Below are positions 3,564 to 46,980 of a DNA stretch of 64,000 bases, piece by piece. Below the pieces are notes generated by a model. That model saw only the letters and a program-made list of their open reading frames with translations, was not told where the DNA came from and did no database searches. The translations under genes were made by a program, and so were the position numbers. Each line of letters starts with the position of its first letter. Positions within the stretch are counted from its first letter, which is position 1. The stretch is from Moniliella sp. 'wahieum'. Taxonomy: Eukaryota. Location of the stretch: NCBI GenBank assembly GCA_003971905.1, contig RSEE01000127.1, positions 1-64,000 of the forward strand, read 5' to 3'.

Positions 3564-4569
3564 AGAGAGGTTAATGTGGTACGCGGATAACAAGGTGCTG
3601 GTAGGCCAACAAGCTCTTTCTAACCCCCAACACCCAACACCCAACACCCAACACCCAATACGCAGCTGGGTCCCAACCCCACTCTCTCTTTTTTCTCGCC
3701 TTGTTTCCACTGGCTGTTCACCCATTTTACCAACCTACTGTCGCGTTGCCCCTTTCTCTCCTTGAGCTGACCGTTCGCTACCAGACCCTAACTTACTACT
3801 TACTACTACTGACCTACTACTCGCTTCCAACTCTGATCGTCCCTGTCTGTTGAACTCTTTACCTGTATCCTGTCTGATGCCTGCATGATGATTCAGGCTG
3901 AATTTTGTACTCCCTGCACGTCCCCTGGCCGGGGTTGAAATCTACTACTACTGTACTCTCATTACTCACTACTCCTACTCATTACTCGCCACTCGCTCAC
4001 TCTTTCGTGTCAGAGTAGTTCGTCCTGCGGCCCCATCGTTCCTTCTACTACCTCACAATCGTTCCCTGTGGCTACTTTTTTCATGGAAGGCATCAAGCAT
4101 CCAAGAGCTCGTTTTGGTGTCCGCGCATCTACAGAGCGGGAGTTGGACTTGTCGTCCATTGCGGTCGGACAAAACAGTGCAAGGTCATAGGGTCGTGGGC
4201 CAGCGTCGCGTATACACGCGTTGGTGGAGAATGGGTGCTGGAAGTACTAAGCCACCGACTGTACGTGAACGAGCTGATGTGGCACTCAGTGGTACGCACG
4301 ACTGGCAGCTGTCAGTGCCTACACAGGGTGGTTGGAGAGCGCCGAGTCAACTGCGTGATGCCCATGAGCTGCATCTATGAGGGCATGCTGCGTCTCTGAA
4401 CTTAGTACTTAGACCAATTACTAGTTACCTGAAGCTTGAAGCCCTGCATGTATTGTTTTCAGGCCGAACAAGAGGAGCTACAGGTGGTATACGGAAGAAC
4501 GAATATGCTCGTACTCTAATGCATGTCCCGACCAAGCAACCGAGTGTCCACCACAGCAGCTCTCGTGGT

Positions 4570-7500
4570 CTACTCCTCCGCCACACCCTCCCATCGCCCC
4601 AGTTCATCTGCCAACGCGTCCACCAAGCCCTGCAGCTCGGCCTGGTCCATGGTGGGGTCGCTGCACACAATGCCTACCGACAGCACGCTGTGTCGAAGCG
4701 CGACATCGATCGTGACTGAAGGCTGAACCGGTGGTGCGGCATCCTCCGGCCAGTCGATCGCCGTTCGACCAGGCATGGGCGGCTGGGTAGTGTAGAATCC
4801 AGTATCGCGTCCGAGCGCATAAGGGCGAAGCAGCTCATCTTCCTGTCGTTCGGGCCCAGCGCCATGCGGAAGAAGTAGGTTGAGCGTCACGTCCGTTTGT
4901 GCTGGGGAGGTGATCTGGGCCTGTCCCAGCTGGGCATGGGCAACGAGTGCGCGTTGGATCGTGTCAAGTCCTTCTTTCTCCTTCTCCACCCCAAACGAGA
5001 GCGGGTGAGCAATGGTAGTGAACCCAGCTAGGCCATCTAGCCCCTCAAACCCACACGCCCGTCCTGAGGCTAAGAAACGCAGTGTCGGATGGGTGGTGTG
5101 GGTATGCGCAGCAAGCACTTTCCCTACCGCAAAGGTAAGTAGGTGCGCGAGTCCTACTCCGTACGCCCGACTGATCCGCTCCAACCCGCTCACATCCTCC
5201 GATAGCACACCACGCACAAGTACTTGTCCATCTGCTTGGCCTGGAGAAGAACGGCAGACCAGCGTGTCCTCTGCGCCTGCCAGCAGAGTCAAATAGGAAG
5301 ACACGGCATTGGGATCGATCGATCGCAAAGCATAGTCCACAAAGTCGGTCCAGAGCGCCGGCGGCGGAAGAGCAAGGCAGGTCGCACCACCTAAGATCGC
5401 ACTGAGTTCCCGAGCTAGCATGCGGATCGTTGGAGGGTCGTACTGCGCGTGGTGGGCAGTGAACAGGATCATGTCGCCTTGTGGGCTGGAGAGGTGCGTG
5501 AGCCGTCCGGGGGAAGAAAAAAAGTCAGTGGGAGTAGCGTTGAGGTGGAGCATCTGATCAAATGCAGCTTCAGCACGATCACGAGCTGAAGTGGTAGGTA
5601 CCACCACTCTCTCCACTGCTCGATGCCACACACCAGGCGCCAACACCACCTGAACCAACTTGTCATCTGGGGTGCGCACAAACGTGCTCCGCAACACTTG
5701 ATGCCGGTCCCGCACTGTCCTCCACGCCTTCTCCACCAGATCGGGGTCCAACTCAACCCCGCTGTCCCATACAAAGGTAGCTTCCATAAACCGGCGCTGC
5801 CGAAGCACAAACTCGTCCAGCGTCATAGCTTGACGAGGTAACGTGGGCACCACGGCCTCGACCAACTCGGCATCTAGACCAAGCACGTCTAGTGCTGCAT
5901 CCCGCTGAACCTCCTCCACCAATACCCTTTCTCCACGTACTGGAGCCTGGACCGTCCGAGTCATACGCGCCACCGTGCGCGCTGCGAGTAGATCGTGGGG
6001 TGTGATCAATAGGCCGTGGGCACGAGCTTGAAATGCAACTGCAATAGCCAACAATGAGTCGAGGCCTAGGAGAAAGAGATTGGTGCAGGAGCAAACTGTG
6101 TCCTGGGATACTTGCAGCTTGGCCGACAGGGCACTGGTCACGATTGCCCTCTCGGTGTCGGTCAAGGCCTGGCGGCCAGGACCAAGGTCGTTGGTACCCT
6201 CCACCTCAGCAGGATGCAGAGGCAGGTGCGCTAGTCCCTCGGGAACGCGCCAGCAGGACGGTGGGGATGAGAAAGAAGGTCTTCAATCGTCTTTGCTAGG
6301 TCATCCGCCGCTTCCGTCATGCACCCTTGTGGTGCACCAAGCCGGATGCGCATCCCATCAGCATCGAGCACGACCGATACGTTGATGGGATACTCTGATG
6401 CCGCTTCGGCTGTTTCGGTGGTAGGATGAGGCGCACGGGTCCACACGTCGTCATTGGCGTTGGGACGCGCTTCCGTCGCGTTGTGGAAGACAAGCAACGT
6501 ATCAAACAAATTGGCAAAGCCTGTTTGCGCACGCCACCAAGCCAATATGGCACTCAAGGGCGCATGATCATATGCTTGCGCTTGACGGAGGTGCTGCTGA
6601 AGTTGCTGCAGGCACTCTAGGTTGGACTGTACAGTCTCCAGTGCGATACGAACGGGAACTGTGTTGATCAAGGGACCAGAGACGTCCTCTACTTGCACCC
6701 CGGGTACGGAGAAAAAGCGTCCAGCTACAACTTGGCCAAAACAGACGTCCCGTCTGCCTAGGACCTTGGCCAGCACTTTGGCCCAGGCCAGCTGAGTAAC
6801 AGCTTGAAGGGACACTTGCTGGTTCTGGAAGTAAGTCGGGTTAGTACGTTGATGAAATGCTTAAGAAGGTAAGAAGGAGAACAGAAGACGTACCTTCACA
6901 TGGCCCTGAATCTCACTCAGAGGCATCGTCAGGCGACGCTCGGTTACTGTGTACCCAGTCTCTCCCGCCGCCACGACAGAGGCAGAGGAGCAACCATGGA
7001 GCGTCTGCGTCCAGTGACTGACAGCGCTCTCCGTTTGCTCGTGAAGATAGGTCGCCACAACAGAGAAGGCCGTCCGAGCGGGGATCGATTCCCCTAGATA
7101 CAAGAGACGCAGATCGCCAAAGAGAGCTGGAAGGGATACACCGTCATACAAGGCATGATGCATGGACAAGATCAAATAAGTTGCCCCTTCCTCCTCGTCC
7201 TCCATCACCCTCGCTCTCCACGGGGGGGTTGCCAACTGCTCCGGTGCCTCAAAGGAGAGGCTGTGAGGAACGTGGGAGAGCGCGCCCACAACCCGTTCCA
7301 ATTGGGGACCGGTGGGAAAGACGTGCGCCTGCCAAGTAGTGCTGAGCGAGAAACCCGTGCGTAAAATGTCCCGAGCAGCCACCAGTTGGTCCACAGCGCG
7401 ACCCAGCTGGTCTACCTTCACCTCGGGGCGCAGGCGCACAATGTGATGGTGAACATAAAGGTCGTGATTGGGAGACGCCAAGGTACCGTTCAACATACCC

Positions 7501-10500
7501 GCTTGAAGTGGGGTGCACGGATAGGAGGCAGGGACCAGCACCTCGACCGGTTGGATCTGTTTGGGTGGTTGCTTCTCGGCCAAGTGCTGGGCCAAGCCAG
7601 CCACATTAGCCGTAGAGAGGACGTCATGGGCACTGACGGCAAGGCCATGTTGCTTGCGCAGTTGGGCGGCAAAGCGTAGAGCGACAATCGAATCAATCCC
7701 TACTCGCAAAAACGGAGTGGTGAGCGTAATGAGGCTTGGATCAACTTGCGTCAAGGCCACAACCATGTCCCGAATCACCAGCTCGGTCGGGGTCATGTCT
7801 CGCTGCGCTGATTCGCACCTCCCAACGCCGGCAGTCTCAATTACTTCTGTGCGTACTAGGCACGGAGGTAGACCCAACGAGATGGTCTCACCAGCTGCAA
7901 ACTGGCCCAGCAAAAGTTCCATTCGTTCCACCACATCCCCCAATGACCCGATTGGTAGCGCATGCTTGACCACCGCCGACAAACGCAAAACTTCCCCCTC
8001 GGCCACCGCCTCGACCGCAGCAGGGGCATCAGTTTCTTCCTCGATTGCATCCACTACCCACGCACGGGCAGTCTTGTCTGCCACCGGCTGAAGGTAGCTG
8101 ACCAGGACATCTGGTAGCGAGCTGCGTTCGGCGGCAAGCCATCGACGAATGGACCGAAGTGGGGTGTGCTGGTACGCGAGCTGTGCCGAGCTTTCCACAT
8201 GAGCCGATTGCACAAGACCAAGGAAGGTATCTGATACGATGCGCGGAAGGGAGAGGGTACAGTGGTCAAACACGGTGCGACAATCTTTTCTGCTCCGGGA
8301 AGGTCGAGAGTGCGACCCCAAAGGACTTGACCCAACACTACATTGGCAGTTCCCAGTGCGGTAGCAAAGGCCGCTGCCACAGCAGCTGTCACAAGCGAAG
8401 GGACCGTCACTTGCGCCCGAGCTGCCGCTTGGACAAGGGGGGCAAGCGGCACTTGAGCCTGAACCCGCTCCAACTGGGGCAACGGTTCTGTCTCCTCCCA
8501 TGGGGACGCCGACAAATCTATCCCACCCAGGGAGGTTTTCCAAAACGCTTGTGCGTCCGTTTGGTCAACAGAGGAAATGTGCACGAGCAGGTCGACCAAA
8601 CCAGGTGGGGCACAGTCCAAGGGCTGATCGGCCAAAAGAGCAGCCAAGTCGTCCAATAACAGCGGAAGCGAATGCGCATCGTACAACGCGTGGTGGAGAT
8701 GAACCGTGATCGTGTCGTCCTCTAATACGAAGCGCCAGGGTGGCACCGTGGCAATTGAGGCCAAGAGGGCGGATGGTTGCATGTTCTGGGTGCCCTCTAC
8801 CACGTGCACCTGAGAGTCAACTTCGGTGGCCACCAGCTGGGCAATTGTGGTGTCATCAACGTGGGCAAAGGATGTGCGGAGGATGGCATGCCTCTGCGCC
8901 AACGCCGTGGCGGCAGCACGGACCCGCTGTACGTCGAGTGCGACAGAAGGGAATCGAACGGCAAAGGAGCCTAGGTAAACATCTTGCTCTGCCTGTTCGG
9001 AGGATATGAGGGAAAGAAAACCATCCCTTCTTGAAGGGGAAGACTGGGAAGAACAGTTTCCAAACGATCGCCCAAGATGGTTTGAGCGGCACGGAGATGC
9101 AACTGTTGAAACGCCTGGAGAACCCGTTGGCCTGGCTCGTTGTCCATGTCAACAGAGTGATTCTCAGCGATCTGGTAGATGCGTGGATGGGTGCGGAGGT
9201 ACGTCATAGGTACCGGCCGTCCTGCATCCCGGAGCGCCCGAGCAAGCCGGATGAGTGTCAGGCTGTCAAAGCCCAACTCAAAGATGGATGTCTCGGGTGT
9301 AACAGGGAAAGGGGAGGGCAAAAGAGCCAAAGCAATATCCGCTACCTCGCGCTCGCTTTCGTTCAACTCGCGCGAGGTAGGTTCAGCGTCGAGGGCGAAA
9401 AGTTGCTCCAGCGGCAGCTCTTTGACCCATGCCGACAGCCTACGAACGTCCGTCTTGCCCGAAATCGCGAGTAAGGTGAGATGCGATACGGGCAGAACCA
9501 AGTCAGGGACCAATAACTCGGCAAATGTTCCTCACAGTACCGTTTCGCACGAAGCGCCAATTGCCCTAGCTCCGTCTGTGCTCCCAACAAAACGGGAAGA
9601 TCTGGTGTGGCCATCGATGCCTGATCAGCCAGCAGGGTGAAGAGCAAAGGGGTGGCCAGACGCTCGTGCTTAACGATCAAGGTGGTGGCGTTGGCTTTAC
9701 CTTCGACGCCATCCAGGGCGCATTGGGATACCTCACCCGGTTCCAACCGTTGTCCTCGGATCTTGGCCTGCTCGTCCCGTCGGCCGAGGTAGTGCAGACG
9801 GCCATCCGGCATCATACGCGCAGCGTCCCCTGTGCGGTACAATCGCTGACCGTCAGGTAAGGTCAGGAAACCTGAGGGCAAGGAAGGATCACGGTTGAGG
9901 TACCCTTGAGCGACCAAGTCGCCCACGATGCACAGCTCGCCTATGCGCCCTCGTAGCACTGGCTGAACCAACGGATCGTCAAATTCAGCCACGAGTGCCG
10001 TGTTGCCAGGTAGAACGGGGCCAATGTCGCGTGTGGTTGAACGGGTGGACTCGGGCGGAAGAGCACATGATGGTTGTTTCTGTGGGTCCGTACGCATTGA
10101 GCACAGGAAGAGCGGTCAACGTATCCCGTACCCGTTCTGTCAACTTTTCCCCTCCCACGCCAATAAACACGAGCGAGAGATCTCCTGCGGGTCGACCCCG
10201 GCCTGATCTAGGAGCGATGGGACGCAGCTCAGGTGAGAGATGCGGAGAACCTGAGCGGTAGCCTTAAGGTCGCCAAGCAAAGTGGGCGGTAGCCCGTGAC
10301 GAGAGCCAAGCCAAAACGCCATGCCATAAAGGTTTGGGACAGATGCACGTCAAATGCCCGGCTGGCCAGGCCGAGGTACCGCCCTTTTCCACCCAAGGAA
10401 AGAGTGGCAGGACACTCACGCCCAAGCACTTGGGCATACGCTTCAATGAAGGTACCTAGGTTGCGCCTGCCAACCAGCACCCCCCCCTTGGGCTTTCCTG

Positions 10501-11601
10501 TTGATCCCGAGTGTACAGTACATAGGCGCCCGATTCGGGCGAGGGCGTTGGCCGCTCGGGTGAAAGCGCCTCAGGGACAAGCGGGAAAGGGTGAGAAACG
10601 TCAAGGACGGGACAGGGAACGTCGACACCCAAGACGTTATCTTCTGAAATGATGAGGGCGCAGCCGCTGTCGAGGGCCAGGTGCCGTTTGCGTTCTCCAG
10701 GAAGCTGCTCGTCGATAGGCAGATAAGCGCGACCCGTCTTGAAGATTGCAACGAGGGCAGCAGTGGAGATCAGAGTGCGGGGCATGCACAGTCCCACCGG
10801 CCCATCACCTTGAGCTAGGGCGTCAATGAGCGCAGCCAATTCGTCGGCTTTGCGTTGAGCTCCCCGTAGTCCAAGACTCTAACCTTGGCTTGGTTGATCA
10901 TCCCGTCTTCCGAGCTCGCAATGACGATGGCTTCCCATTCGGGGTGCACACTGGTCCAGTGGGAAAACCAATGCAGGGGATCATCGTGCGGGGTGTGACC
11001 TTCGGCCCACGAAGAGGAGTAGAACATAAGGGAAGGATCTTGTAGCGTAGAGTTTGTTCCTGGGCTACCGCAAGGATCTGACGCAACATGAGCTGCACGA
11101 CCGAGCTATCCATCAACATGCCTGAGCCGAGAGGACTACTTTTTCATCGCAAATGCCCAGGTCGGTACTGCCCATGGCACGTTCTGCCCGTTCCAAAGGC
11201 TGATGCAGCTGTGGGAGTGAGGCTCTCTGCAGTCGCACGATCGATCGACTGGAAAGCAGAGACGAATTGATCTCGTGGGCGTAGCGATCGCGGCAGGGGC
11301 CAAAAACGAGGCGAGGCATAGGTTGCCATCCTCGTCGATCTGGCCGAGGAGCACATGAGCATCTTTGTCCTTGTTCACTTCCACGTACTGGCCAAGACGA
11401 CAGCAAATGCCTCAATCAACGTGGACGGAGCGAATGGGGTACTGTCAACGAACCGAGTCGACAATGATTTTGTCCTCAGGTGCTTTGGTCAAGGTAAGAT
11501 CCGAGAGCGAGCTGGCCAGGCCGCGGGCGTGATGAGGTCGCTATCCTTGGCAAGGCGACTGAGCCGCTAAGCTGGTCGGGTTCGGGCTCCGCGAGCAACA
11601 T
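4570..11601 (-). CDS. Siderophore NRPS with domain order A-T-C-T-C-T-C
   Basis: One A domain (AYVLYT..., FDVH, GGE, NAYGPTE, GEL, YRTGD, GRRDEQAKIRGQRLEPGEV), three T domains (ELGFDSL, RVGIDSI, LLGLDSL) and three C domains (HHALYDA, HHALYDG, HHAQYDP). Probable ATG at 11601 just after a ttccag acceptor; intron near 6830-6890; many frameshifts. Confidence 0.9.
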
Positions 11602-12893
11602 GGAACTGGAAAAAAATCTGACGTGTTAATTAACCAAGTGGCATAGCAAACAGAGGAGGAAGCGAAGGCCTCAGCCCAAGAGGTAAGACCAGAGTGGATG
11701 GCCCGCAACCAACAACGGTTGGCATACTACGCAGACGAAAACAGCTGCAGTTGCAGAGCAATAAGGTAGACGAGAAAGGGGGAGACGTATAGGTGGGTGC
11801 TTGGAAAGCAAGAGCAACAAACGCGAGCAATCAGCCGGAGTTGCGAAAGAGAAAGACAGGACATGTGACCGGGTGGCCTGGAAAGTAATAGACTGTGGGG
11901 CCAAGAGTGTTGAGCAGGCGCCAACAGCGAGGGTGAGGGCAACGGTGTGGGCGAAGCAAAAAGGGAAGAGCGACAGGTGGGGGAGGAAGTTGGTAGCGGG
12001 AGAATAGGCGCAAGAGGCGAGTTAGAAAGGAGCTAGGAACTCAATACGGGCAGTATTTGGGCGACGGTATGCAAGTTCAGGCACTGTTGGAGCTTGAAGC
12101 CTCCTTGGCGTGAAGCTTGAATGGGTTTGAGTTTTGAGAGGGGTATGCAGTATGCAGTCTGGACTAGTGAGTGCTGAGCCTCAGCGCTCACGCCGAGCAT
12201 ATGGATCCAAGGCATCCGCGCCGTCCGACGGTCGGAGATCTAGAGATGGACGCCGCAAGGCAAGGCCATGCCATGCCAAGCGTTCCTGCCGCGCCACATG
12301 TTCGCCGTCGCCGCCCTGGCTGTGTCAGGCGCCATGGCGCATCGGGCTTCAGTCGCGTCAGGCCTGCTGGAAGCTTGACGCTTGACGCTGGAAGGCTCAC
12401 AATGCGTGGTGGAGCAAAGGCAAGATCCAGACAGTGATGCACCCCACAGGCACCCACGGGGCTACTATGCAGCTATACGCCCCCCGGAATATTCAGATCC
12501 AGATTTTCCGCTGCCGCTCTGCTTCTGCGTTGCTCTACCGCCCGTGCGCCGCCCGCACGCCCTCACCCCCGCCGCCAGACCTAACCCGTAAACGGTAACC
12601 CCTCGCCCCCTGTTCGGCCGCGGGGCAGCGACGCGCACCATTCATCCATCGACATCCTTCGTCCTTCATCATTGCATCGTTCCTAAGGCCTAAGGCCTCG
12701 TTACTCAGTTGAGTATACTCACCCTCCTCGCAAGCAGCTTGCGCTTCAGCTGTTCCAAGTGGTGCCCATGCGCTGGTCCAGTGCAGATCGATGATTGATG
12801 CATTATGCATGATGCATGATATTGAATCCCGTGAATGATAGGGGTCGGCCAACGCATTCCTATTGCGATGTGAGATCTTAGATCTTAGATCTG

Positions 12894-12902
12894 ATCTGAT
12901 AA
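12894..12902 (+). promoter_or_regulatory. Putative iron-repressor GATA site (ATCTGATAA, SreA/Urbs1-type)
   Basis: Exact match to the ATCWGATAA consensus, in the divergent promoter between the NRPS and the hydratase, preceded by tandem AGATCT. Confidence 0.55.
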
Positions 12903-14161
12903 GAAAAAGGAGGACAACTAAAAAGCATTGATCAGCGCTGAGCCGCTGAGCCTCATCCGTGGCGGGCTCTGTATACGCCGACGAAGACGGCAGCTTTTAA
13001 ATGTCACTGTCTACTTTGTCTTGCACTCAGACTGAACAGTGGAAGAGCTGAGCCAGTGTTTGGATTGCGCCTTCTATACCCTCAGCCTCAGCGGCTCAGA
13101 GTGCTCAGCAGAATCACAACGCCACACTCTATTGCGGCTGATGTAGTCTTGGCTCTCTCCCGAGCGCGACCAGCGACGAATACTCTGTGCCAAGCTCCTC
13201 TCTCGAAGCTGCGAAGCTGCCCTTCACAAGCCTTTCCAATCATTAATCACGCGAACGGTGAGTTGACCAAGCGAGCATCAGTACTCAGTACCAGTGACCA
13301 TCTCCCGCAGGGCGCCAAGAACTTGTCGTGGTGATCGTATCGTGGAATGCCGTTTCTCCTCTGCCCCCCGTAGATGCCATCTCTCAGTTTCATGCGCTTA
13401 GGTCTGTGTGGCTTTCCCCACTCTCTCTTCTCCGACGATGCACGATGCATATGGGAGTGTGTCCCTTTTCCTATGATCGAGATCACCGACCCGCGTATGG
13501 CCCGCACAACATGTATATGCATGCTGTGCACAGTGTGCACAATGAGGCGTGCGACATGTCCCTCTCATCGACATCATCGACATGATCAAACAAAGTGAAC
13601 ATCAGTCATCAGCGCCATCAGCCATCAGCTGCACAGACAAACATCGGTTTGTTCCTTCTCGTCTATTACCTACTTGTTCTTCCCGTACAACCAAATAACA
13701 CGCTGTGTCAGATGCCGCACGTATCGGACGGCCCAAGCTAGAGTGGCTCTAGCTAGTGGCTAGTGCCTGCTTCATAAGCTTCCTATGAAGCATCGTGTCA
13801 AAACACGACCATGCATGAGTCTCATTTTCAGTGAATCTGCCGAAGAGGCCCTAGCCGGCAAACGCTCCAATTCAAATGTAGGTCTTCGGGGCAACGATCA
13901 CATATACACCCCGATCACAGGCCCACGACGTTGTGTGGCGTGGGGCAGAGAATTAAGCTCAGTAACTTAATTTCCTGCGCATGCACATCCCAGTATATAG
14001 AAGCTTCTGTTAAGAGAGTCAGAAGCAAGCCTCTCATTCACTTTTCCTCCTCCTGGCTCTACAGGAGACACTGGCAGTGGGCGTGAGGCTTGAATAATGA
14101 TTGGCCTGGCCCGCCTGCTCCACCATTCCATTCCCTTGCATCCTCTTGGATCAGATTGCAC

Positions 14162-15266
<1,105 letters not shown>

Positions 15267-15738
15267 TGTCCTACGGTTTTCCATGTGGACTACAAATGTA
15301 CTTGCATGTGGATTTACTTTGACGACCTGCTGTACAGAGATAGATGAGAATTCGGTAACAATACTAGTAAGTGCTAATTAATGGATTGATTGGCATCCCG
15401 ATACACACGCTTTGAAAGATGCTCACAGAATACCTTCTTAGAATGCATTTGGTGTTGGTTCGGTCGATACCTTCGACGTTCTGCACATACTCATCATATA
15501 TTCTTGTATAGCCTAGTCTCATCTCTCGGTCTAGATCTGCCAGCATGGGTGCTCAGTACCTTTGGAACATCCAATGAATCAATTGAGAAGAAAAGCATGG
15601 AAGAGGAATACATTCCATCTCCATGAGACTTTGCTTTTTTCAGTGCACGAGGACGCCCTGGCCAGATCCCCTAGCCGACATCCGATGCAGTGTGAAAGGG
15701 GCGTGTGGGCTGGTTGGCATGCTGCACTGCATGGTCCC

Positions 15739-17104
15739 TTACTCTAGCAGAGCATCGGTGAAAAACCGGTCACGATGAAGGACAAAGAAGACGGCACGCT
15801 TGTGCGGCAGCTCAATTTCCCGGCGAAAGTCTTGAGGGAGAAAAGTGGCCAGGAGAGGGATGATGGGCAGGTCGTACCGTGGCTCGCCCAGGACCTTGTC
15901 GGTTCTCGGATCACGCAGGAAACAAGCGTGTTTAAGGGAGACCATGCAGGCGGTAAACCGATGTTTTCCACGGAACTTTTCTTCGCCAATGAGCAAGTGG
16001 GTAGCTTGGTCCCAGTTGCCCAGGTTGCCCACAAAGGGTGCCATACCATCTTCTTTGGACCACACCATTTCTCCGTACCCTGCCAACTCGCCATCCCATG
16101 CAACTAGCACACCCATCGCATGCGGATCCGCAAGTTTGTCCGCAATGTACTGCCGGTGGTGCTCGTCGGGCCCACGCTCCCGCCACCCATGGTTCACCCG
16201 CTCCGAGTTCTGCCACGACTTGTAGGCGGCAAAGTGGGTGGAGTTGGACCCATCAATGTGGATCAGTTCCAGGTGCTGGCCGACGGAAAAGATGAAGCGC
16301 GAGTAGAGGACGGAGCCGGGGGCGGGCTTGGGCGGGCGCAACGGATGGGTCGTCAAGACGGGCGGCGAAACACTTTGAGTAAAGGATTGCGTGTAGGGGA
16401 ACAGACCCGTGGTAGGTACTGTGGATTGCAACCAGTTCCATTCCTTGGGCGCCCCAGCTGCCTGCCAAAACGTCGACCTGTCCAGCAGCACAACATCCTT
16501 GTCGGTCGGACTGACAAAGCCCAAACCAGTCTCCACAAGCAACGGCAGCAGCTCGGGCTGGTGCACAAGGATCGGGAGACGATCCGAATCCTTGTGTCGG
16601 ATCCAGACTAAAATGCAGCCGCCATTCAGGTCATAATATGGTAAGTACATTTCTCAGGTAGGGGACGTATCCTGCGTATCCCTAGGAATGTGCAAACGTA
16701 CATGGGTAAATGGAGGCCCACAAGGACCGCTGGGTGTCGGTGTGATCTTGAATGTCGAGTTTCCAAGTGTTCTGGCGCGTGGCACGGTCCTCATTGACAA
16801 TCCCGTGCTGGCTGGTTTTGACCAGACGTTCGGTCTTGGTCCACAATGCAAACACTTGCTTCTTGTCCGCGTCCCACGAGAGAGAGATGGTGGTCTGGGG
16901 GGCATCCAGCGCACTCTTGTCGTCATCAGCGCTACCCTCACCAGCAACATGCACATCCGCTGTCACACTGGTCTTGCGGCCAGGCAGGGTGAAGGTGTGG
17001 GTGCCCTGGGCGAGAAACACTTTGTACTCCTTGCGCGGGACAAAGTCGGCGCGCAAGCCAGGAGTGCGGGGCGCGGGGGAGGCGATGTTGGCCGAGTCGG
17101 ACAT
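15739..17104 (-). CDS. N5-hydroxyornithine acyltransferase (IucB/AlcB GNAT family; Fer5/SidF-like)
   Basis: HPLRPPKPAPGSVLYSR, WQNSERVNHGW, GYGEMVWSKED, HLLIGEEKFRG, FLRDPRTDKVLGEPR, ELPHKRA. N-terminal part begins MSDSANIASP at 17104 and joins by a small intron or frameshift near 16650-16700. Confidence 0.85.
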
Positions 17105-18223
17105 GGTTGGACGGTGAGTTGGGGTGGCAGAGAGCAGCCGAGGAGAGGGTGGTGGGGCAGAGAAGAAAGCTAAAGGGCCACACTGTAATTGATGGAAGCC
17201 ACGCTGGAGAGTGAAAGGTATATGTACCGAGAAAAAGAAAAAGACGTGTCCTTCTTGCTTTGATAGTGGGCCGCCAAGGTGAAAGCCACAATCAAGGTGG
17301 TCAACGATGGCATGGTAGCGACGGATGATGATGAAGTGCCTCACACCCCGGATCGGAGATGGCGCCGTGATTAATGATTAATGATTCCCACGTCTCGCTT
17401 CGATACTCAGCCCTGGCATCACACCCTCAGTACTCAGTCTGGGTAAGTCACGCGTCACGAGGAAGGAGTGGCTGGGTTACCCTCACCGGCACCGGCCACC
17501 AGTCACCGGCGCTTGAAGCTTTTGCCGGTTATAAACCCACCCGATGTAATCGTACTCGTCCTCGTACTCGGCGTGCTTTTTGCGTGGCATGCATGACATG
17601 CACCTCAATACGGCGTACTGAGTGTACTCATGTGCATGGCACATGTGAGCCTCAGCTGCTCGGAGTGACTAGCTAGTGCTTAGTGAATTAATGATGGCTG
17701 CGAGCGACGCATGAAACATGACGCGTGACGCATGACGGATGCGAATAAGCTTTGGGATCTGACACTGGTGATTGTGGTTGGGTGACCTGTTCGGGCATGG
17801 GTTCTTGCGCTGCCGCGGTGCCAGTTGCGCCATTGCCAGGCGTCTCCTGTCGGCGGATGGGGAGGTGGCGACGGGGATACTAGGTGTTTGTTCTTCTGAG
17901 ATCTGACATGCTGACATGTGACATGCACATGTGACACCAAACAGGCACGGGCATTCCATCTTCCTCCTCGCAGGGCCCAGGGCCCAGGGGCTCGTGGTGC
18001 GTGCACGCGCTGCACCAGGCTACTACCCGAGGCTGCATGATTGCATGCCACCCGAAGCTCGAAGCTTGCCGGCGCCAAGATCAGATTGCATGGTCGAAAT
18101 TGAGAACGGAGATCTGAGAGCGGCGTAATAGCAATCTTGGTTGCGTAGCGCTTAATGCTTGCTGCAGCCTCGGACAGACGGTACACTAATCTGATCCACA
18201 CCTCCGCTCGCCGTGCGATCTGA

Positions 18224-18268
18224 TCAGATCCATCATGCTCAGATCCATCATGCTCAGATCCATCATGC
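18224..18268. repeat. Three perfect tandem copies of TCAGATCCATCATGC (15 bp)
   Basis: Read directly from the sequence, in the acyltransferase/ABC transporter divergent promoter. Confidence 0.9.
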
Positions 18269-18892
18269 ATTGTGCCTCATGCATTCGTGCTCAGCAGGCT
18301 CAGCCCGCCGCCGTGTGGCGCACACTGGCGCCGGGCGGGGGGCAGGCGACAGCCGGGTGTCGGTCGCGAGCATTGCGTTGTTCCGGCCGGCCGGCCAAAT
18401 GTGGGGGGGGGGAGCTCAAGCTGCAAGGGGTATCCATGACTACATAGCTACAGCATGGCGAGCAAGCCCATCGTGCATCGCATCTGCTCTTGCAGCCTCC
18501 AGGTTTGTGGATGACTAGTACTGGTATCACGCATGCCGTGCGTTGTTGGTGTGCAATATGCATGGCTACTGCCACATGCATGAGGCAGTGCGGCGCAGAA
18601 TAGATCATCCATCCACGCAGCTCACCCCTGGCTGCCCTGGGGGCATCAGCACATCCGTACGAGTGAGTACTCGGTGTGCTAGGATGCAGCCTGCCCTACT
18701 GTTCAGGAAAACTATAGGAGCAGCGAACTGCTGCATATGCAGGCCCCTGCGTCCCCCTAACCATCCTCCTGCACATCCTTACACATTCCACCCCAGACGC
18801 TGCCCGCCTCCACCATCGACTGCGTTGCACCACCACTACCACCTTAGCTCGCCAGGTAGTCCCCGCTTCACGCACTCGTGCCCATCGTCATC

Positions 18893-21800
18893 ATGGTGTG
18901 GCCCTCCCTGCCCGCCCGCTTCCGCTCCCGCCGCCCCACCTTCCCCCAGAACAGGCCTAGCAGCGACGCTTGTGGCACCGACACCGATCCTGATGCCAAG
19001 CTATCCAACGTGCCCACCGACCAGCAACAGCACATAGCCGAGCTGGGGCAAGTGCCACTCCAGCCCACGCTCGAGCCCTGGCCTCCTCGGCCTTGGTGGC
19101 GCCGTGTGCCCTTTATGAGTACCACTCCGCGTCCATCCTCTCTGCCCTGGATGACACCGATCCAAGAGCCACGCCAAGTCCCGAACAGTCGGCCAGCCTC
19201 TTTTCTCACCTCTGGTTCGCCTGGATCGATCCCCTGATTCGTGTAGGCTACACCCGCCCGATTGAAAAGGACGATCTGTGGCTCTTGCCCGAGCAGCGCC
19301 ACTCGGTCGTTCTCGGAACCCGGCTGCTCCAAGCCCTTGAGCGGCGACAAGCTCAACGTGCCGAGTACCTGCGCCGTCACCCGAAAAAGGCATCCAAGGA
19401 CCCGCTCATTCCACCGTTCATGTGGGCCATGAATGACGTGGTGTTTGGGTATCTCTGGTTTGGCGGCTTGCTTAAGTTGTTGGCTGATGTGGGAACGTGC
19501 GTATTCCATCCTTTGGTGCCCCTTTTCCCCCTCTTCCCCCTTTTCCCCTCTTGACCACACTGTACTGACATGCGCGTGTTCTTTGATCCATTGACAGAAT
19601 CACGAGCCCGTTGCAAATGGCGCGCGTTGATTGATTTTGTCCAACACTCGTACCAGTACAGGGACCAGCGCGAGTTGGCGCCCGACATTGGGTGGGATTG
19701 GCTTGGCATTCGGCATCTTTCTTCGTCCAAGCGTTCGTTGTCTTTTGTAACGTCCACGCCTTTGCACGTGGCTTTGGATCGGGCATTTTGCTCCGCGCTG
19801 CCATCATCCAAGCTGTCTTTCAGCGCGGTATGAAGCTCTCGTCGCGCGCTCGGATCGGACAGGGGTTCAATACGGGCAAGTTAGTCACCTTTATCAGTGC
19901 CGATGCGTCCCGCATTGACTTTTCTGGCCAGTTCTTTCACATGACCTGGACTAGCCTGGTACAAATTTTGATCTGCGTTGCGCTCCTGTGCTGGCAGTTG
20001 GAGTACAGTGCGCTGCCCGGGATCGCGTTCATCTTCATTATGAGTCCTGTGCAGACGCTGCTGACCAAACAGCTGTTCAAGTTGCGTAAGAACAGTATGA
20101 TCTGGACCGAGCGACGCAACAAGGCCATCAACGAGCTTGTCGGTGGCATTCGCGTCATCAAGCAGTTCGCATGGGAAGAACCTTATGCGCAACACATCCA
20201 TCACCTTCGCAACGAGGAAATGAAGTACAGTTCCAACGTAAACGCATGTTTCTCCGAGCGGTCAACTTGGCACTAGCGTTTGCCACCCCAACCTTGGCCT
20301 CTGTACTGAGTTTTGTCACGTACGCTTTGGTCGGTCATGGGCTACAGCTGGCTCATCTTTTCTTCGTTGGTCTACTTTCAACTACTGCGTACTCCGCTCC
20401 AGTTCCTCCCTGTCGCATGGAACGCAGTGGTCGACGCCAAAAATGCCGCTGACCGGATCGGAAAGCTGTTTGAGGCAGAGGTGTTCCACACGGAAATCCG
20501 CCGCGACCCCATTCGCCATACGGTGTGTCCATTGTCGATGGGTGCTTTACGGGGAGTCGGCTGCGGCGCCCAAGACCAAGTTGGAGGAAGAAACTGAAAA
20601 GAACGAGAAGCAGAAGGCGAAAAACAAGGAGAAGGAGAAGGAGAAAGATGCCAACGGGGGGTGGACACCAAAAAGCCACTCGTCGCCTCGCTTAGCAACA
20701 TCAACCTAACCTTGCCCAAGGGGTGCTTGTGCGCCGTCATTGGTGGCGTAGGGAGCGGCAAGATTCTCTCCTTTCGGCCTTGACGGGGGAAATGCGCCAG
20801 GAGGGAGGAGAGGTGACGTTGGCTACGGATCTAGCCGTGTGCAACCAAGTGGCTTGGATTCAGAGTGCCAGCATCAAGGATAACATTCTGTTTGGCTCTC
20901 CGTACGATCCAGCGCGGTACAACGAGGTGGTGAAAGCGTGTGCGCTTGTGCCGGATCTGGAGGTGCTGGAAGCAGGAGACCAAACTGTCGTGGGGGAAAA
21001 GGGGGTGTCCCTTTCGGGCGGACAAAAACAACGCATCAACATTGCCCGTGCGCTCTACAACGGTGCAGAGACGGTGTTGTTGGACGATTGTCTCTCGGCG
21101 TTGGATGCGCGCGTCGGCGCCGACATATTTTCCCATGTGATTGCTGGACCGGCCATGGCGGGCAAGACGCGCGTGTTGGTCACCCACGCTCTGTATGTTC
21201 TTTCCTCGTGCGACTGGATCGTTCTCATGGATGAAGGCCGGATTGTGGAACAAGGCACGTTTGATCACTTGCTTCATGCCAATGGCCGTGTGGCGGAGCT
21301 ACTCCATCTGTACACCAAGAACAAGGCCTCCTCCTCGACCGCAGCAGAGTTCGGCCAAGAACAGCGTGCATGGCCTGCCTAGGGAACGGGAAGTAGATGA
21401 ACAAGAATACGGTTCTGTACTCTCGGAGGATGCGAAGCCAGAAGACGACAAGGAGGAAGATGGGAAGGCAACCGACTTGGACGCGGTTCCTCGGGTGGAG
21501 AAGACGGATGGCAAAGTCCCCACTGAAGTGTCGGAAAACAAGACGACCAGTCCCAGAAGGCGCCAAAGGAAACCTCACCAAAAGCGCTAATGCAAGCCGA
21601 AGAGCGATACAGCGGGTCGGTAGGACGAGGGGTCTATCTGCGTTACCTCCGTTCCGCACCACTGTGGCTACTCTTCCCGCCTTTTGTGATTGCTGTGGTG
21701 ATCTTTCAAGGCTCGACCATCGTATCGCCTCTTTGGCTCATGTGGTGGCAAAACGACTCGTTGCCTGTGCCCTCAGGGGTCTACATGGGCTTGTATGCTG

Positions 21801-23343
21801 TATTTGGTGCGACGCAGTCCTAGGCCTGCTGGGCATGGGCATCATTTTCTCCTGTTTCTCCATCTGTTCAGCTACCACTTTGCACAACAAAATGCTCAGC
21901 CGCATACTCCATGCGCCCTTTTCCTTTTTCGATACGACACCCCAAGGGCGCGTCACGCACCGCTTCTCCAAAGATGTGGACACACTCGATAATCTGATCG
22001 GGGACATGTCGCGAATGCTGATTGGCACCATTGTTCAAGTGGTGGGCTCCATTGTGCTGATTGCAGTCCTGACTCCTTACTTTTTGATTGCTGTGGCGAG
22101 TGGTATCCATCTACCTCTTCATCGCGCTGTATTATCGTTCCACAGCACGGGAGGTGCGTCGCGTCGACGCCGTTCTGCGCTCTAACATGCACGAGCACTT
22201 TTCCGAGGCGCTCAATGGGGTGAACACGATCCGTGCCTATGGTCAAATCGACCAGTTTATCGCCGAAAACTGTAAACGGATCGACCGTGAGAACCGGGCA
22301 TACTGGCTCTCTCAAGTCTGCCAGCGCTGGCTTTCCATCCGTCTGGACTTTTTAGGATCGCTTCTCGTTTGCCGTGGCACTCTTATCGTCCGGCATGCGC
22401 TTTTCCATGAGCCCCGGTCAGTCGGGCGTGGCTCTGTCCTACATTATGACCGCACAGAGCTTGTTTGGCTGGGTCATCCGTCACTCGGCCGAATTGGAAA
22501 ACAACATGTCGGCCGTTGAGCGTGTGGTTCACTATGCCACTCAAGTCGAGCAGGAACAACCGTACCATCTCCCCGAGGTTGACGACCACCTCGCTCCCAC
22601 CTGGCCTAGTACGGGCGAAATCACTTTTGAACATGTCGATGCGCAGTACAAGACGGGAACACGCAAGGTCCTTGACGACCTTACCCTTCACATTCGTCCA
22701 GGGGAGAAGGTGGGCTTTGTAGGCCGCACGGGCGCGGGCAAGTCGACCCTGGTCACCCTCTTGCTCCGCACACTCGAGCTGGCAGGTGGTAAGATTGTGA
22801 TTGACGGAGTGGACATTTCCACCCTGGGTCTGCACCGTTTGCGAAGCAGTTTGACCTTGATCCCTCAGGATGCAGTTATCTACTCGGGCACACTGCGGTA
22901 CAACCTCGATCCGTTAGGGGAGTACGACGATGCACGACTGTGGGACGCGCTGCATCGGACGTCGCTTTCCGAGCTCAGCCTCGACATGGACATTTCCGAA
23001 GAAGGCGGTAACTTATCTGCCGGCCAGCGCTCGCTCATCTCCATTGCTCGTGCTATGATTCGCAGAACGAGAATTGCATCTTGGACGAAGCCACAGCATC
23101 GATTGACCAGGAAACCGACCGCAAGATCCAAAGTTTGATCGAAACTAGCTTTGACGGTATCACCACTTTGACCGTCGCACATCGTATCCAACCATTGTTC
23201 ATTACGACCGCGTCTGTGTCCTGGACCAAGGTCGTATTGTCGAGTTCGCTCCCCCCGCTCAGCTGTACCAAGACCCTAATTCCATCTTCCACGCTTTGTG
23301 CGTCGCAGCTGACCTGCATTTCGAAAAGGGCGAGTGGATCTAA
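18893..23343 (+). CDS. ABCC/MRP-type full-size ABC transporter (Fer6/Yor1-like)
   Basis: TMD1, NBD1 (GGVGSGK, LSGGQKQR, LLDD), TMD2 (FFDTTPQGRVTHRFSKD) and NBD2 (GRTGAGKS, LSAGQR, DEATAS). Intron ~19497-19598; stop TAA 23341-23343; frameshifts. Confidence 0.9.
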
Positions 23344-23379
23344 TCTCACCCTCGCCTCATCCATCTTTCTTTTTTACCT

Positions 23380-23380
<1 letters not shown>

Positions 23381-23410
<30 letters not shown>
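23381..23410. repeat. (CAA)10 microsatellite
   Basis: Read directly, downstream of the ABC transporter stop. Confidence 0.9.
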
Positions 23411-24722
23411 CTAGTACTACTACTCCCAAGCTCTCCTTCTACATTTCTTCACGTTAATGCCACTGGACGTCGATGAGCTTCCGTTTCCGTTTTCCCCCGT
23501 AGGAGAGCACCCTGATTATGGACCGTCTACAGCCCGCCAGTTTGCAGGTTTGCTTTCTGATACCATACCGCCTTGTTAGCAAGGTGTGCTGCTGGTGACA
23601 GTTCATACATGATTCGGCTGAGATCTGACTGAGAAATATGGCTTCCATACTTAGACGCAGCGGCACATCTCCTCGGGTGCGCTGGCACTGTACACCATGC
23701 ACCATGCTTCACTTATCACGGCGCGCTGGCCCACGAAAGAAGACGAGACGGAGCCTGTCCCACCGCAGGTCCCACCGCAGGTCCACCCACGTTCCATATT
23801 CCACGTTCCCACCTCGCTTTCGGTCCACTGGCAGGCTCCAGGTGCAATCGGCCGCGACTGCCGTGAAAGCACGCGCGATGCTCGCGAGCATGAATGGGCG
23901 CATGGGCGCATGGGCACCAGCTGGATGGAGTATGGATGGGGCGTTCGTTGGTGTTGGTGTTGACATTGGCGTTGGTGCACTCCAGTCTGCTACGGCGGAT
24001 TCACGTGCAACGTTCGTAGAGGCAGGTGGTGCATGGGGGTCGGTGGTGGTCGATAGCTTGGAGGTCGATGGGCGAGACGATGATGGATGATGGATGATGG
24101 ATGATGGATGATCGTCGATCGATGCTGGTGCATGTGAATGTGATTCATGATGCACATGATGGAGCTTTGAAATTTGAGGCCTGAGGCTGAGGACCAATGA
24201 GGAATTGATGGATGATGGCTGATGGATGATCGATGGGCAGCACGGGGCGGGTGCTGCGGACGTCGCGGGTACTAGCGGTGCTTCACATCAACGTGCAAAT
24301 GTTCAACGCCGCTATCGATCGATCCGCAGCGCCCCTTGGCTGTCACGCGTCACGCACCACGTGTTGAGAATTTGAGCGTGGGAGCGCCCCGTGCGGCGAC
24401 GGGCGAGGGTGGCTTCGGTGCACAGGGGCAGTGTGCGGCGCCTGCCTCAGCACAAGCGGTGGGCGGTGGAGCAGGCAGGCAGGTGCGGGGCGGCAGATGC
24501 GCGCCCTGCGAGGGGGCGGGCAATTAACGGGGGCCCACAGCAGGGCGCGTGCCACGAGGCACATGTTATCTGCTGCCGGGCATATTTTTGCACCGCAGAT
24601 TCATATGCGTTGCTGCCCAGAGCAGCTCTGCTCGGCCGGCCCTCTTCTCGCTCCGGCACGCCCTTCCCTCCGTTCGGCCACCACCACCCCCCCAACCCCC
24701 CCCAACCCCTCCCTACCCCGCC

Positions 24723-26300
24723 ATGGCTCTCATACGCACCGCCACCGCCTAGAAGGCTCCTCTCCCACCACCGACCACAGCCGCCCCCATCGTCTTCCCC
24801 CCCACCCTCGCCTCCCTCACCCCCCCGTCTCGCCTCCACCCCCCCCCCCCCAACCAACCTACGACGATGCTCTGCAGCTCCACCCCCAGCCCCGCCCCTC
24901 CCATGTCTGCTGACGCGCCGGAACCCGAGCCCGAGCCGCTTTCAGCTCGGCCTTCGCGTCCCCCCACCCGCCCTACGTCCCCGACCCTGCGCTCCTGCCT
25001 CAAGCGTACGCCTAGTCCGGCGGAACCAGCTTCGCGGCGTTCGGTGCCGCGGCTTATGACCCCAAGCGCCTCCTCCACCTCGCTGGCCTCGTGCGAAAGT
25101 GTTCGGTCCGTGCGCTTTTCAGCCGAAGAGGTGCCTGTGTTTGCGACGCACAGCGCTAGCGAGTACGATCGTCGGCCCTCGAGTGTCGCCTACCACGGTA
25201 TGGCAAGTTTGTTGGGTGCGGGGCCCCATCGGTTCGAGGACCAGGACGACGATAGGGACGCTCCCCCGCCAGGCACGGGCGCTGGCGAGGCTTGGATCAA
25301 GGCCCGCATCGCCTCGACCAACCAGGCGGAGATGGAACAGGCGACTTCCCACCCGGATGTCGAGGACAGTATTCAGGCCATGTGGGCCTTGGGCGCAGCT
25401 CGCCTAATGGGTCTAGCCCCTGAGGAGCAGGCAGGAACAAGAGCAGGAGCAGGATCAAGAACAGGCAGGAGCAGGAGCAGGAACCCGAGCTCGAACCTAC
25501 AGCGTCTCCCGAACGCGAGCACTGTCCTGCCACGTGCTTGCCTGTCCCGGCCTTCACATCCTCTTTTGACGGTCCAAGACCCCGCTCCGCCCGCCTCAGA
25601 CGGAGACGACGAGACTGTGGTCGCGACCGAATCGGATGGCCTCGGCTCGGACTCGGATACAGACTCCAACTCCAACTCCAACTCCAACTCGGACACGGAC
25701 GCAGAGCCTCAAACGATCTTCTTGTTTCGCTACGTGGGGACGAGAACGAATTGAAGTTGCCTGCACCGCGGACGAAGAAACATAAGCTCCAACCCACCAC
25801 TCGCCCCGTGTGCCCCGATGCGAAATGTGCCGTGTCGATGGGGCCCGAGGCAGGAGCGGAAGCGGAACGGGATGGGATGGGGACTCAGCGCCTGGCTCAG
25901 CCCCCATCTGTATCCGTGGTGGGAGCGGGAGGGGGGCTGGACGCATACCCACTGCCCCACCTCACCCGGAAGCCGAGTCGGGGTGGATATCCTCTTCTCC
26001 GCGCAGTCCGCCTGGTCTATGTGGATCCACAAGTTCTGCCCCATCATCACCATCGTCGCTATCGTCGACGCGGGCTCGCGCTCCGTCTCGCCAAGCATAC
26101 CATTTACCTCGGGAAGGGGCACCTTGCCTCCCTTGCCATGTGCCTTGCCCGACGACCAGGCTCGCGAACGCGAACGCGCACGCTTAGGTATGGGTCCCCA
26201 TCACCATGCCAAGCTTAATCGCAAGGCACATGTTCAACGCGTTTGCCTCATGGCCCGGTTTGGCTTGTTGGACCAGCCGCCACGCCTTTGCCGGGTGCGA
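24723..26300 (+). CDS. Low-complexity hypothetical protein with SVRF...THSASEYDRRP motif (Bni4-like PP1-docking motif)
   Basis: ORF 24867-25754 has RSCLK and SVRFSAEEVPVFATHSASEYDRRP. Both ends are uncertain because of frameshifts. Confidence 0.45.
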
Positions 26301-46797: not shown

Positions 46798-46980
46798 TGT
46801 AACAGTCGGGGCTAAACGAGGGAGACCAAGGTCCTGTCAGAGGCGGGGAAAGGCAAGATCGTTCGTGGGAGGGAGGAAACAGAAGGCATCAGGCAGAGAA
46901 CAGAAGCAAAAGGGAAGGGAAGAGCAAGAGACACAGGATGCGGAATTGGAAATTGGAGCGAGCTTAGTCATTCGGTGACA
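46798..46980 (-). repeat. 3' LTR (183 bp)
   Basis: Direct repeat of 52337-52516 with TGT...ACA ends, next to the polypurine tract. Confidence 0.95.

Follow-up and report, generated by a model that had tools for sequence, protein, structure and literature searches.

The gene cluster and its synthetase

The stretch considered here, positions 1 to 64,000 of contig RSEE01000127.1 of Moniliella sp. 'wahieum' (called the window as a whole), is fungal DNA with about 57% G+C overall and short GT..AG introns. Between 4570 and 23343 it carries four adjoining genes, in the order nonribosomal peptide synthetase (NRPS), enoyl-CoA hydratase, hydroxyornithine acyltransferase and ABCC transporter. This region is identified below, from its sequence, as the ferrichrome A (fer) cluster of the Ustilaginomycotina in its local form, in which the synthetase Fer3 appears to have been shortened in place. 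The gene set, including an ABCC exporter, had been proposed in an initial annotation made from the letters alone, and a Pfam scan of open reading frame (ORF) pieces bears it out: NRPS domains were matched by 8 of the 16 stop-to-stop minus-strand pieces in 4570-12996, and nine of 52 ORFs in 12188-25754 had a Pfam match (ECH_1, Acetyltransf_8, ABC_membrane twice, ABC_tran twice, PDZ), the PDZ-domain ORF at 24753-25754 lying outside the cluster. The features are listed here with A, T and C for adenylation, carrier and condensation domains, and with A1 to A3 and C1, C2 for those of full-length Fer3.

4570..11601, minus strand: NRPS gene assigned to Fer3 descent, C2 remnant followed by A-T-C-T-C-T-C (Pfam and frameshift-aware alignment)
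10990..11601, minus strand: C2 remnant, assigned as the C-terminal half of Fer3 C2 without HHxxxD (matches of the relatives' N-termini to Fer3)
9414..10975, minus strand: adenylation domain, assigned as Fer3 A3 orthologue (Pfam, alignment, trees)
9163..9321, minus strand: carrier domain 1, GFDSL at 9273-9259 (PP-binding, E 2.3e-8)
7800..8990, minus strand: condensation domain 1 of 3, HHALYD at 8695-8678, frame break near 8250 (Pfam, alignment)
7581..7775, minus strand: carrier domain 2, GIDSI at 7700-7686 (PP-binding, E 9.6e-13)
6255..7526, minus strand: condensation domain 2 of 3, HHALYD at 7160-7143, containing the intron (Pfam, alignment)
6893-6825, minus strand: canonical GT..AG intron of 69 nt inside condensation domain 2 (aligner and reading of the sequence)
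5953..6138, minus strand: carrier domain 3, GLDSL at 6066-6052 (PP-binding, E 1.3e-6)
4582..5775, minus strand: terminal condensation domain, 3 of 3, HHAQYD at 5454-5437 (Pfam, alignment)
4570-4572, minus strand: NRPS stop codon
11602..14300, no strand: divergent intergenic region between NRPS and hydratase, no relic of Fer3 modules 1 and 2 detected
14323..15381, plus strand: enoyl-CoA hydratase, Fer4-like by position (ECH_1, Pfam)
15739..17104, minus strand: N5-hydroxyornithine acyltransferase (Acetyltransf_8), assigned as Fer5 orthologue (Pfam and homologues)
19719..23075, plus strand: ABCC-type transporter with alternating transmembrane and nucleotide-binding domains, two of each (Pfam, ABC_membrane twice and ABC_tran twice)

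In the synthetase, the Pfam matches to AMP-binding fall in three ORF pieces (10857-9897) that make up a single A domain and are the only such matches among the scanned ORFs of the window, those to PP-binding in three pieces (9321-9163, 7775-7581 and 6138-5953), and those to Condensation in four ORF pieces corresponding to three domains. The single-A order A-T-C-T-C-T-C read by the initial annotation is thereby confirmed. The HHxxxD motif is kept in all three condensation domains and GxDS in all three carrier domains. Within the A domain the motifs A5 (10098-10078), A7 (9839-9825) and A8 (9785-9732) are intact, and the motif A3 is broken by a frame break near 10508; this domain is the most conserved segment of the enzyme, with 83% identity over 523 codons to its closest relative (P0001). 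Alignments with six homologues, made with a custom protein-to-DNA aligner allowing frameshifts and introns, span 11601 or 10988 to 4582 and contain no in-frame stop in 2096-2111 aligned codons. Given this absence of stops, the intact HHxxxD, GxDS, A5, A7 and A8 motifs and the strong conservation of the A domain, the NRPS is likely functional. Translation may begin at 11601 or further in, for example from the ATG at 11027, which sits just ahead of the A domain.

The acyltransferase gene is made up of exon 1 (17104-16702), a GT..AG intron (16701-16608), exon 2 (16607-15742) and a stop codon (15741-15739), without any frame break, and its Acetyltransf_8 match covers 15739-16653 on the minus strand. 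A search with this protein gave 141 matches among 1173 candidates, 120 of them listed. Among the matches listed, identity was 73% to P0096 (Sporisorium reilianum) and P0097 (S. graminicola), 71% to P0098 (Pseudozyma hubeiensis), 68% to P0099 (Ustilago trichophora) and 70% to P0100, named 'Acyltransferase fer5 [Thecaphora frezii]', with agaricomycete proteins following at 57-61%. As judged from these homologues, the acyltransferase is a Fer5 orthologue. The acyltransferase and the Fer3-type NRPS are recorded on contigs of identical length in each of S. reilianum, P. hubeiensis, U. trichophora, T. frezii and Violaceomyces, which suggests that the two genes share a contig in those five species, the Violaceomyces contig being only 45 kb long.

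The ECH_1 match of the hydratase spans 14323-15258 on the plus strand in four pieces (profile positions 3-37, 42-68, 79-146 and 147-249). The gene is interrupted by frame breaks at 14427-14469 and at 14549-14579 and by a single intron, 14785-14944, about 150 nt long, and no start codon was found for it. In the ESM Atlas its C-terminal half matched generic bacterial ECH clusters only (0.89), which is uninformative. The transporter gene probably spans from about 18500 to about 23343. It contains at least one frame break, near 22103, where the ABC_membrane match passes at profile position 151 from one ORF (up to 22104) to another (from 22103), and the best solved relatives of its transmembrane piece are ABCC5, ABCC2, MRP1 and YCF1.

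Between fer5 and the probable start of the transporter gene lie about 1.4 kb (17105-18500) with minus-strand ORFs (for example 17680-18276, 198 aa) lacking a Pfam match, which could be promoter sequence or a small gene of no known function, comparable to fer8 of Ustilago maydis. The divergent promoter between NRPS and hydratase holds the only ATCWGATAA of the window (12894-12902), a putative site for an iron-repressing GATA factor. One occurrence compares with 0.43 expected, and at least one was found in 37 of 100 shuffles, a weak and not significant result; the shorter KGATAA is not enriched in the window either (18 against 28 expected). The site is suggestive at most as an iron control element.

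Pfam scanning outside the cluster region took in 150 ORFs out of the 160 that are 110 aa or longer, the other ten all lying beyond 59880. The scanned ORFs belong to housekeeping genes and one retroelement, and no NRPS domain, acyl-CoA ligase or MFS importer was seen among them. Neither a fer7 nor a fer8 homologue was recognised within the 64-kb window.

Descent from Fer3 and the C2 remnant

According to the frameshift-aware aligner, the closest relatives of the window NRPS are P0001 (70% identity) and P0002 (63%), followed by the single-A proteins of Ustilago loliicola (P0003, 2333 aa) and T. frezii (P0005, 2543 aa). P0003 and P0005 stem from annotated genomes of named smuts, where each is a Fer3-like synthetase with a single A domain, and the contig of P0005 has the same listed length as that of a protein named Fer5. 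When P0001 was compared with longer proteins, the six best named matches were Fer3 orthologues (4744-4858 aa, 1399-1485 bits, 46-47% identity) annotated as 'siderophore peptide synthetase involved in ferrichrome A biosynthesis', and SidC came next with 1164 bits. The window NRPS is colinear with residues 2555-4851 of S. reilianum Fer3, that is, up to the C-terminus, with 47% identity over 2111 codons, and the matching stretch corresponds to A3-T-C-T-C-T-C. Its identity to the other short proteins (45-49%) is of the same order. S. reilianum Fer3 (P0220) itself has three A and five C stretches, and the full three-A layout (type II, A-T-C-A-T-C-A-T-C-T-C-T-C) is not that of the window enzyme, with its one A domain.

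Phylogenetic analysis agrees with this colinearity. The window NRPS, P0001-P0005 and the Fer3 A3 domains formed a clade with 100% support, with SidC A3 outside it, in all three trees built: one of 77 rows (for each protein with a score of 380 bits or more its best A domain, and five additional ones), one of 81 A-domain rows (lower threshold, ascomycete clade thinned) and one of the whole A-T-C-T-C-T-C region (14 rows, 2285 columns). Within this clade the window NRPS was placed with P0001 and P0002. Branching began with SidC and full-length Violaceomyces, continued through three short forms (the window group, then T. frezii, then U. loliicola) and ended with full-length Ustilaginaceae Fer3. Monophyly of the window group with T. 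frezii, a grouping named after earlier trees had been seen, was absent from the free tree, where T. frezii joined the Ustilaginaceae side with 86/91 support, and was not rejected by the approximately unbiased test (p-AU 0.069). Among the best 150 representatives of an exhaustive search, none of the other single-A proteins in the trees (P0377, P0393, P0403, P0407, P0408, P0410, P0415, P0450, P0454 and P0465) joined the Fer3-A3 clade, and several stood next to named ascomycete synthetases. Twenty short or Sid2-length relatives were looked up by name; no Sid2 or agaricomycete sequence was found among them, and for seven a name was available through their cluster (a lichen fungus, a Dothideales species, Saitoella, three chytrids and a generic JGI label).

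A further line of evidence comes from the segment ahead of the A domain. The N-terminal 250-315 residues of the short proteins have no Pfam domain, yet match Fer3 just upstream of A3: against U. trichophora Fer3 (P0215), residues 53-313 of T. frezii P0005 match 2282-2589 (E 1e-16), residues 23-230 of P0002 match 2293-2596 (E 2.4e-6) and residues 50-119 of P0001 match 2294-2370 (E 1.7e-5). The HHxxxD motif of C2 in P0215, at 2224, lies upstream of the matched stretch, and none of these three proteins has an HHxxxD ahead of its own first complete C domain. Because they begin past this motif and match Fer3 just upstream of A3, the segment is identified, on these alignments, as the dead C-terminal half of C2, a deletion scar. 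P0005, P0001 and P0002, which come from independent assemblies, all begin matching Fer3 from about 2240-2290, shortly past the C2 histidine motif, and the breakpoint is common to T. frezii and the window group within about 60 residues. U. loliicola P0003 begins at Fer3 2486, which reflects either a different event or a split gene model. In the window, the remnant (11601-10990) shows 46-52% identity to P0001 and contains four to nine frame breaks, and it may no longer be translated.

Taking together the colinearity with the C-terminal half of Fer3, the position in the Fer3-A3 clade and the N-terminal C2 remnant, the window NRPS is to be regarded as Fer3 without modules 1 and 2, and the same short form occurs in T. 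frezii (P0005) and in two further assemblies (P0001, P0002). The initial annotation had viewed the locus as a hybrid, an NPS2-like (type VI) synthetase paired with ferrichrome A-type tailoring genes. Neither part of that description is supported for the enzyme, whose lineage is that of the Ustilaginomycotina Fer3-A3 clade and whose N-terminus is a leftover of Fer3 C2; the likeness to U. maydis fer3-fer6 that had also been noticed stands, with a Fer5 orthologue and a Fer3-colinear NRPS. The absence of additional A modules upstream of 11601 is likewise upheld. Outside the NRPS gene, Fer3 modules 1 and 2 were found nowhere in the window by tblastn with the N-terminal halves of seven full-length Fer3/SidC proteins (none of 48 matches lay outside), and in 11400-14400, taken as 122 six-frame pieces, the strongest match to a profile of Fer3 residues 1-2600 had an E of 0.28. 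A candidate relic of these modules in 11400-14400 was rejected: its best tblastn E was 0.014, with one orthologue only and not significant, and its frameshift-aware score was 95 for that orthologue against 44-86 in 24 shuffles, the other three orthologues staying within the shuffle range.

The starting ancestor would thus have been a three-module Fer3 that lost A1-T-C1-A2-T together with the catalytic half of C2, leaving a dead C2 tail and A3-T-C-T-C-T-C. It is a tentative and rather doubtful proposal that Fer3 was reduced to the iterative tri-ornithine module on at least two occasions in the Ustilaginomycotina, just past the C2 active site in the window lineage and T. frezii and at another breakpoint in U. 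loliicola, so that a ferrichrome A cluster came to make an undescribed tris(methylglutaconyl-hydroxyornithine) siderophore with three free carboxylates. If true, multiple shortening of Fer3 would offer a natural, datable example of 'type VI' synthetases arising from multi-module ones.

Frame breaks and the predicted product

The need for polishing the assembly, raised by the initial annotation, is evident from the NRPS, hydratase and ABC genes, all of which are split by single-base length changes. In tblastn searches with close relatives, the NRPS changes frame where homologue and DNA both continue without a gap, meaning that these are frameshifts and not introns. Nine breaks were placed in the NRPS core (the 6.4 kb from the start of the A domain to the stop codon), identically with P0003, P0004 and P0005, near 10849, 10508, 10278, 10174, 10030, 9511, 9017, 8250 and 6241; at eight of them a base is missing, and at the ninth there is one too many. 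The gene for eEF1A (38938-40336, plus strand), whose product is about 90% identical to yeast eEF1A, is broken in the same manner near 39513 and again near 40120. Yeast residues 5-191, 182-390 and 388-458 correspond to three ORFs, each in another frame, which adjoin at the same nucleotides with no intron at the junctions. Two breaks in 1.4 kb of eEF1A and nine in 6.4 kb of NRPS core are similar rates, and the eEF1A breaks point to about 1.4 indel errors per kb of coding sequence in this assembly. Since a conserved, essential gene has as many breaks per kb as the NRPS core, assembly error and not decay is the most likely source of those in the NRPS, the hydratase and the ABC gene. A Ty3/gypsy-type retroelement at 46840-51095 (minus strand), for which an ungapped repeat search found no pair of long terminal repeats, has an unbroken 1291-aa ORF (reverse transcriptase, RNase H, integrase, SH3 and chromodomain) and an overlapping protease ORF; this intact 3.9-kb ORF is odd beside neighbouring genes with more than one break per kb.

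The explanation that we somewhat favour as a whole is a fer cluster with a truncated Fer3 that would make a trimeric siderophore, its frame breaks being assembly noise. Several points weigh against it. The breaks are judged by indirect evidence. Their density is uneven (six in the 1.6-kb A domain, four to nine in the 0.6-kb remnant and three in the other 4.8 kb), and Fer5 (1.3 kb) as well as the 3.9-kb retroelement ORF are unbroken. The trees were built without Sid2 and without agaricomycete type VI sequences, and the tree program flagged joins of long branches as well as several rows, that of the window among them, with an unusual amino-acid composition. Among the short proteins, P0003 (U. 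loliicola) and P0004 are possibly split or partial gene models, P0004 being an ORF call on an 8.7-kb contig and possibly part of a full-length gene. An ornithine monooxygenase, a 3-hydroxy-3-methylglutaryl-CoA (HMG-CoA) synthase and a siderophore importer were not seen among the scanned window ORFs. Finally, the best solved match of the C-terminal half of the hydratase is an uncharacterised enzyme (3kqf, E 1.6e-19), the human methylglutaconyl-CoA hydratase AUH (1hzd, E 7e-17) coming second; the ECH and ABCC families expected of Fer4 and Fer6 are present in adjacent genes, which are candidate orthologues of these two.

The uneven density and the unbroken genes speak for a cluster of decaying pseudogenes, whose breaks would be real and which would make no siderophore, as do the sheer numbers of breaks (nine in the NRPS core, four to nine in its N-terminal part, two in the hydratase and at least one in the ABC gene). 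Decay is nevertheless considered quite unlikely, with no in-frame stop in about 2100 codons, the catalytic motifs (HHxxxD, GxDS, A5, A7, A8) kept, the most broken segment, the A domain, being the most conserved one, eight of nine core breaks of a single type, one base fewer, and an equal rate per kb in the essential eEF1A. The same error-prone assembly could be invoked to explain the shortness of the NRPS itself, the true gene being a complete three-module Fer3 that makes ferrichrome A, as the full-length enzymes (4744-4858 aa) owned by Ustilaginaceae relatives might suggest. This we hold to be most improbable: independent assemblies (T. frezii P0005, P0001 and P0002) start at the same place in Fer3 C2, the 2.7 kb between NRPS and hydratase are unrelated sequence without A, T or C remnant, and the Fer3 modules are too divergent to collapse into one another, the A domain of P0004 scoring 94 bits with A1, 162 with A2 and 1031 with A3 of S. 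reilianum Fer3. With truncation and assembly noise retained as the favoured explanation, the frame breaks illustrate how an unpolished assembly can disguise a working cluster as a pseudogene.

What such a cluster would make can be approached from U. maydis. The papers cited here by PMC number are drawn on as excerpts, and statements about them hold for those excerpts. In U. maydis, Hcs1 provides HMG-CoA, Fer4 converts it to the methylglutaconyl thioester, Fer5 acylates the N5-hydroxyornithine supplied by Sid1 and Fer3 assembles ferrichrome A (PMC10098057). In the window lineage, an ornithine N5-monooxygenase encoded elsewhere would supply N5-hydroxyornithine, the hydratase would dehydrate HMG-CoA to methylglutaconyl-CoA and Fer5 would transfer the acyl group, as in the Fer4 and Fer5 steps of U. 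maydis. The single A domain would then activate the acyl-hydroxyornithine and load all three carrier domains, in line with the orthologous A3 of SidC, which in vitro loads its own carrier domain and the two downstream (PMC10192304), and the condensation domains would link the three units into a tripeptide tris-hydroxamate that is released, in linear or cyclic form, and exported by the ABCC pump. By analogy, the product is probably a tri-(N5-acyl-N5-hydroxyornithine) rather than ferrichrome A. Its acyl groups are plausibly, and probably, methylglutaconyl, on the grounds of Fer5 orthology, of the Fer3-A3 placement and of the lack of a SidI-type ligase among the scanned window ORFs.

A trimer carrying another acyl group, be it anhydromevalonyl (as in des(diserylglycyl)ferrirhodin), acetyl or other, is rather unlikely. 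For it stand several points: the best solved match of the hydratase is not AUH and its Fer4 likeness is one of position, proteins of the Fer5 family are widespread in fungi making other acyl groups, and CsNPS2 reportedly accepted both acetyl- and anhydromevalonyl-hydroxyornithine in vitro (Brandenburger 2017). On the other side, the acyltransferase is closest to Ustilaginaceae proteins apparently encoded on Fer3's contig, the A domain is closest to Fer3-A3, and the SidI-type acyl-CoA ligase required for the anhydromevalonyl route was not found among the scanned window ORFs. A split assembly line, with a ferrichrome-type hexapeptide built jointly by the short NRPS and another synthetase whose gene lies elsewhere, was raised by Bushley et al. 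(2008) for the single-A enzyme of Coprinopsis cinerea (PMC2644324), and the present data span the 64-kb window, not the whole genome. Such an arrangement is very unlikely here, since the C2 remnant lacks the catalytic histidine motif and could not accept an upstream peptide, and the characterised single-A enzymes CsNPS2 and Cpf1 make trimers alone (PMC10192304, PMC12617850). The methylglutaconyl trimer remains the preferred product.

Elsewhere in the window, adjoining ORFs at 31272-33268 (minus strand), one of which has both domains, encode class-III aminotransferase and APH-type phosphotransferase domains, possibly a fused gene of the kinase/phospho-lyase type. The first 2000 positions have 66.5% G+C, against 49-64% in the rest of the window, and a gene at 862-3571 (plus strand) with CBS domains followed by a PB1 domain lies over this stretch.

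Comparison with known siderophore systems

According to Winterberg et al. 2010, cited by PMC10098057 and PMC13208730, the U. maydis ferrichrome A cluster comprises the fer3 NRPS, the fer4 enoyl-CoA hydratase, the fer5 acyltransferase and the fer6 ABC transporter. The same four gene types stand side by side in the window. The resemblance to Ustilaginomycotina fer clusters extends to the proteins, with a Fer5 orthologue 68-73% identical to four Ustilaginaceae sequences and an NRPS that is colinear with, and phylogenetically inside, the A3-T-C-T-C-T-C part of Fer3. In contrast to U. maydis, no homologue of fer7 or fer8 was recognised in the window, and the NRPS is devoid of modules 1 and 2 (the Ser/Gly part) and of the catalytic half of C2, and therefore should not be able to make the cyclic hexapeptide. 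A 2026 survey of 16 Ustilaginaceae describes eight fer3 homologues with conserved domain composition, and short forms are not mentioned in the excerpt concerned (PMC13208730).

In domain order the enzyme is identical to the type VI synthetases CsNPS2 (basidioferrin) and Cpf1 (coprinoferrin), and by analogy the expected chemistry is the same, one A domain loading three carriers to give a tri-(acyl-hydroxyornithine). It differs in being part of a fer cluster with hydratase and acyltransferase instead of lying beside an ornithine N-monooxygenase, an enzyme that belongs to the core pair of basidiomycete type VI clusters (PMC12617850) and whose family had no match in the scanned window ORFs. It differs also in deriving, on the evidence above, from Fer3, whereas the A domain of C. 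cinerea was reported to group with Sid2-A3 (PMC2644324), the agaricomycete enzymes being compared here by description only. The nesting of the window enzyme among full-length Fer3 proteins, the C2 remnant and the position of other single-A proteins outside the Fer3-A3 clade argue indirectly against common descent with the agaricomycete type VI enzymes. These have been seen as N-terminally truncated ferrichrome synthetases, with CsNPS2 and Cpf1 as the most truncated form, reduced to the tri-ornithine region (PMC10192304). A module-loss origin has thus already been proposed for type VI enzymes, without a remnant being shown in the excerpts concerned (PMC10192304, PMC2644324); the half condensation domain preserved here would be the scar of such an event and would make the window enzyme a clear case of an NRPS simplified by module loss with its iterative module kept.

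The Aspergillus fusarinine pathway offers a parallel from another NRPS lineage. It employs the NRPS SidD, the hydratase SidH, the transacylase SidF, the ligase SidI and the ABC transporter SitT. As in the window, a CoA-ester hydratase, a hydroxyornithine transacylase, an iterative single-A NRPS and an ABC pump are combined towards an acyl-hydroxyornithine trimer (PMC3709128, PMC8152254). Unlike the enzyme described here, however, SidD forms ester bonds; no SidI-like ligase was found among the scanned window ORFs, and the window NRPS is nearest to ferrichrome synthetases of the Fer3/SidC type.

As to the product, the initial annotation had considered a secreted tri-ornithine hydroxamate with methylglutaconyl-type groups a combination not known to be described. 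This holds in a narrower sense than claimed: trimers with acetyl (basidioferrin), hexanoyl (coprinoferrin) and anhydromevalonyl groups (des(diserylglycyl)ferrirhodin, DDF) are known (PMC12617850, PMC8152254, PMC2644324), so that non-acetyl acyl-hydroxyornithine trimers are already in print, and what was not found in the literature searched is a methylglutaconyl counterpart, or a gene basis of this kind for DDF. A methylglutaconyl-hydroxyornithine trimer is not described in the excerpts of PMC10500206 and PMC8470733 either. The closest precedent is DDF itself, found in Aspergillus ochraceus and Agaricus bisporus, a ferrichrome-type siderophore minus Ser-Ser-Gly that consists of three acyl-hydroxyornithines (PMC2644324), and a DDF-like three-unit product was suggested by Bushley et al. 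(2008) for the C. cinerea type VI enzyme (PMC2644324). Although its acyl groups are anhydromevalonyl, DDF stands in the same relation to its parent type as the predicted product does to ferrichrome A. If the prediction holds, the window cluster would make a small and new siderophore of the hydroxamate type, in essence ferrichrome A stripped of the Ser-Ser-Gly half, that can be derived directly from a well-studied pathway.

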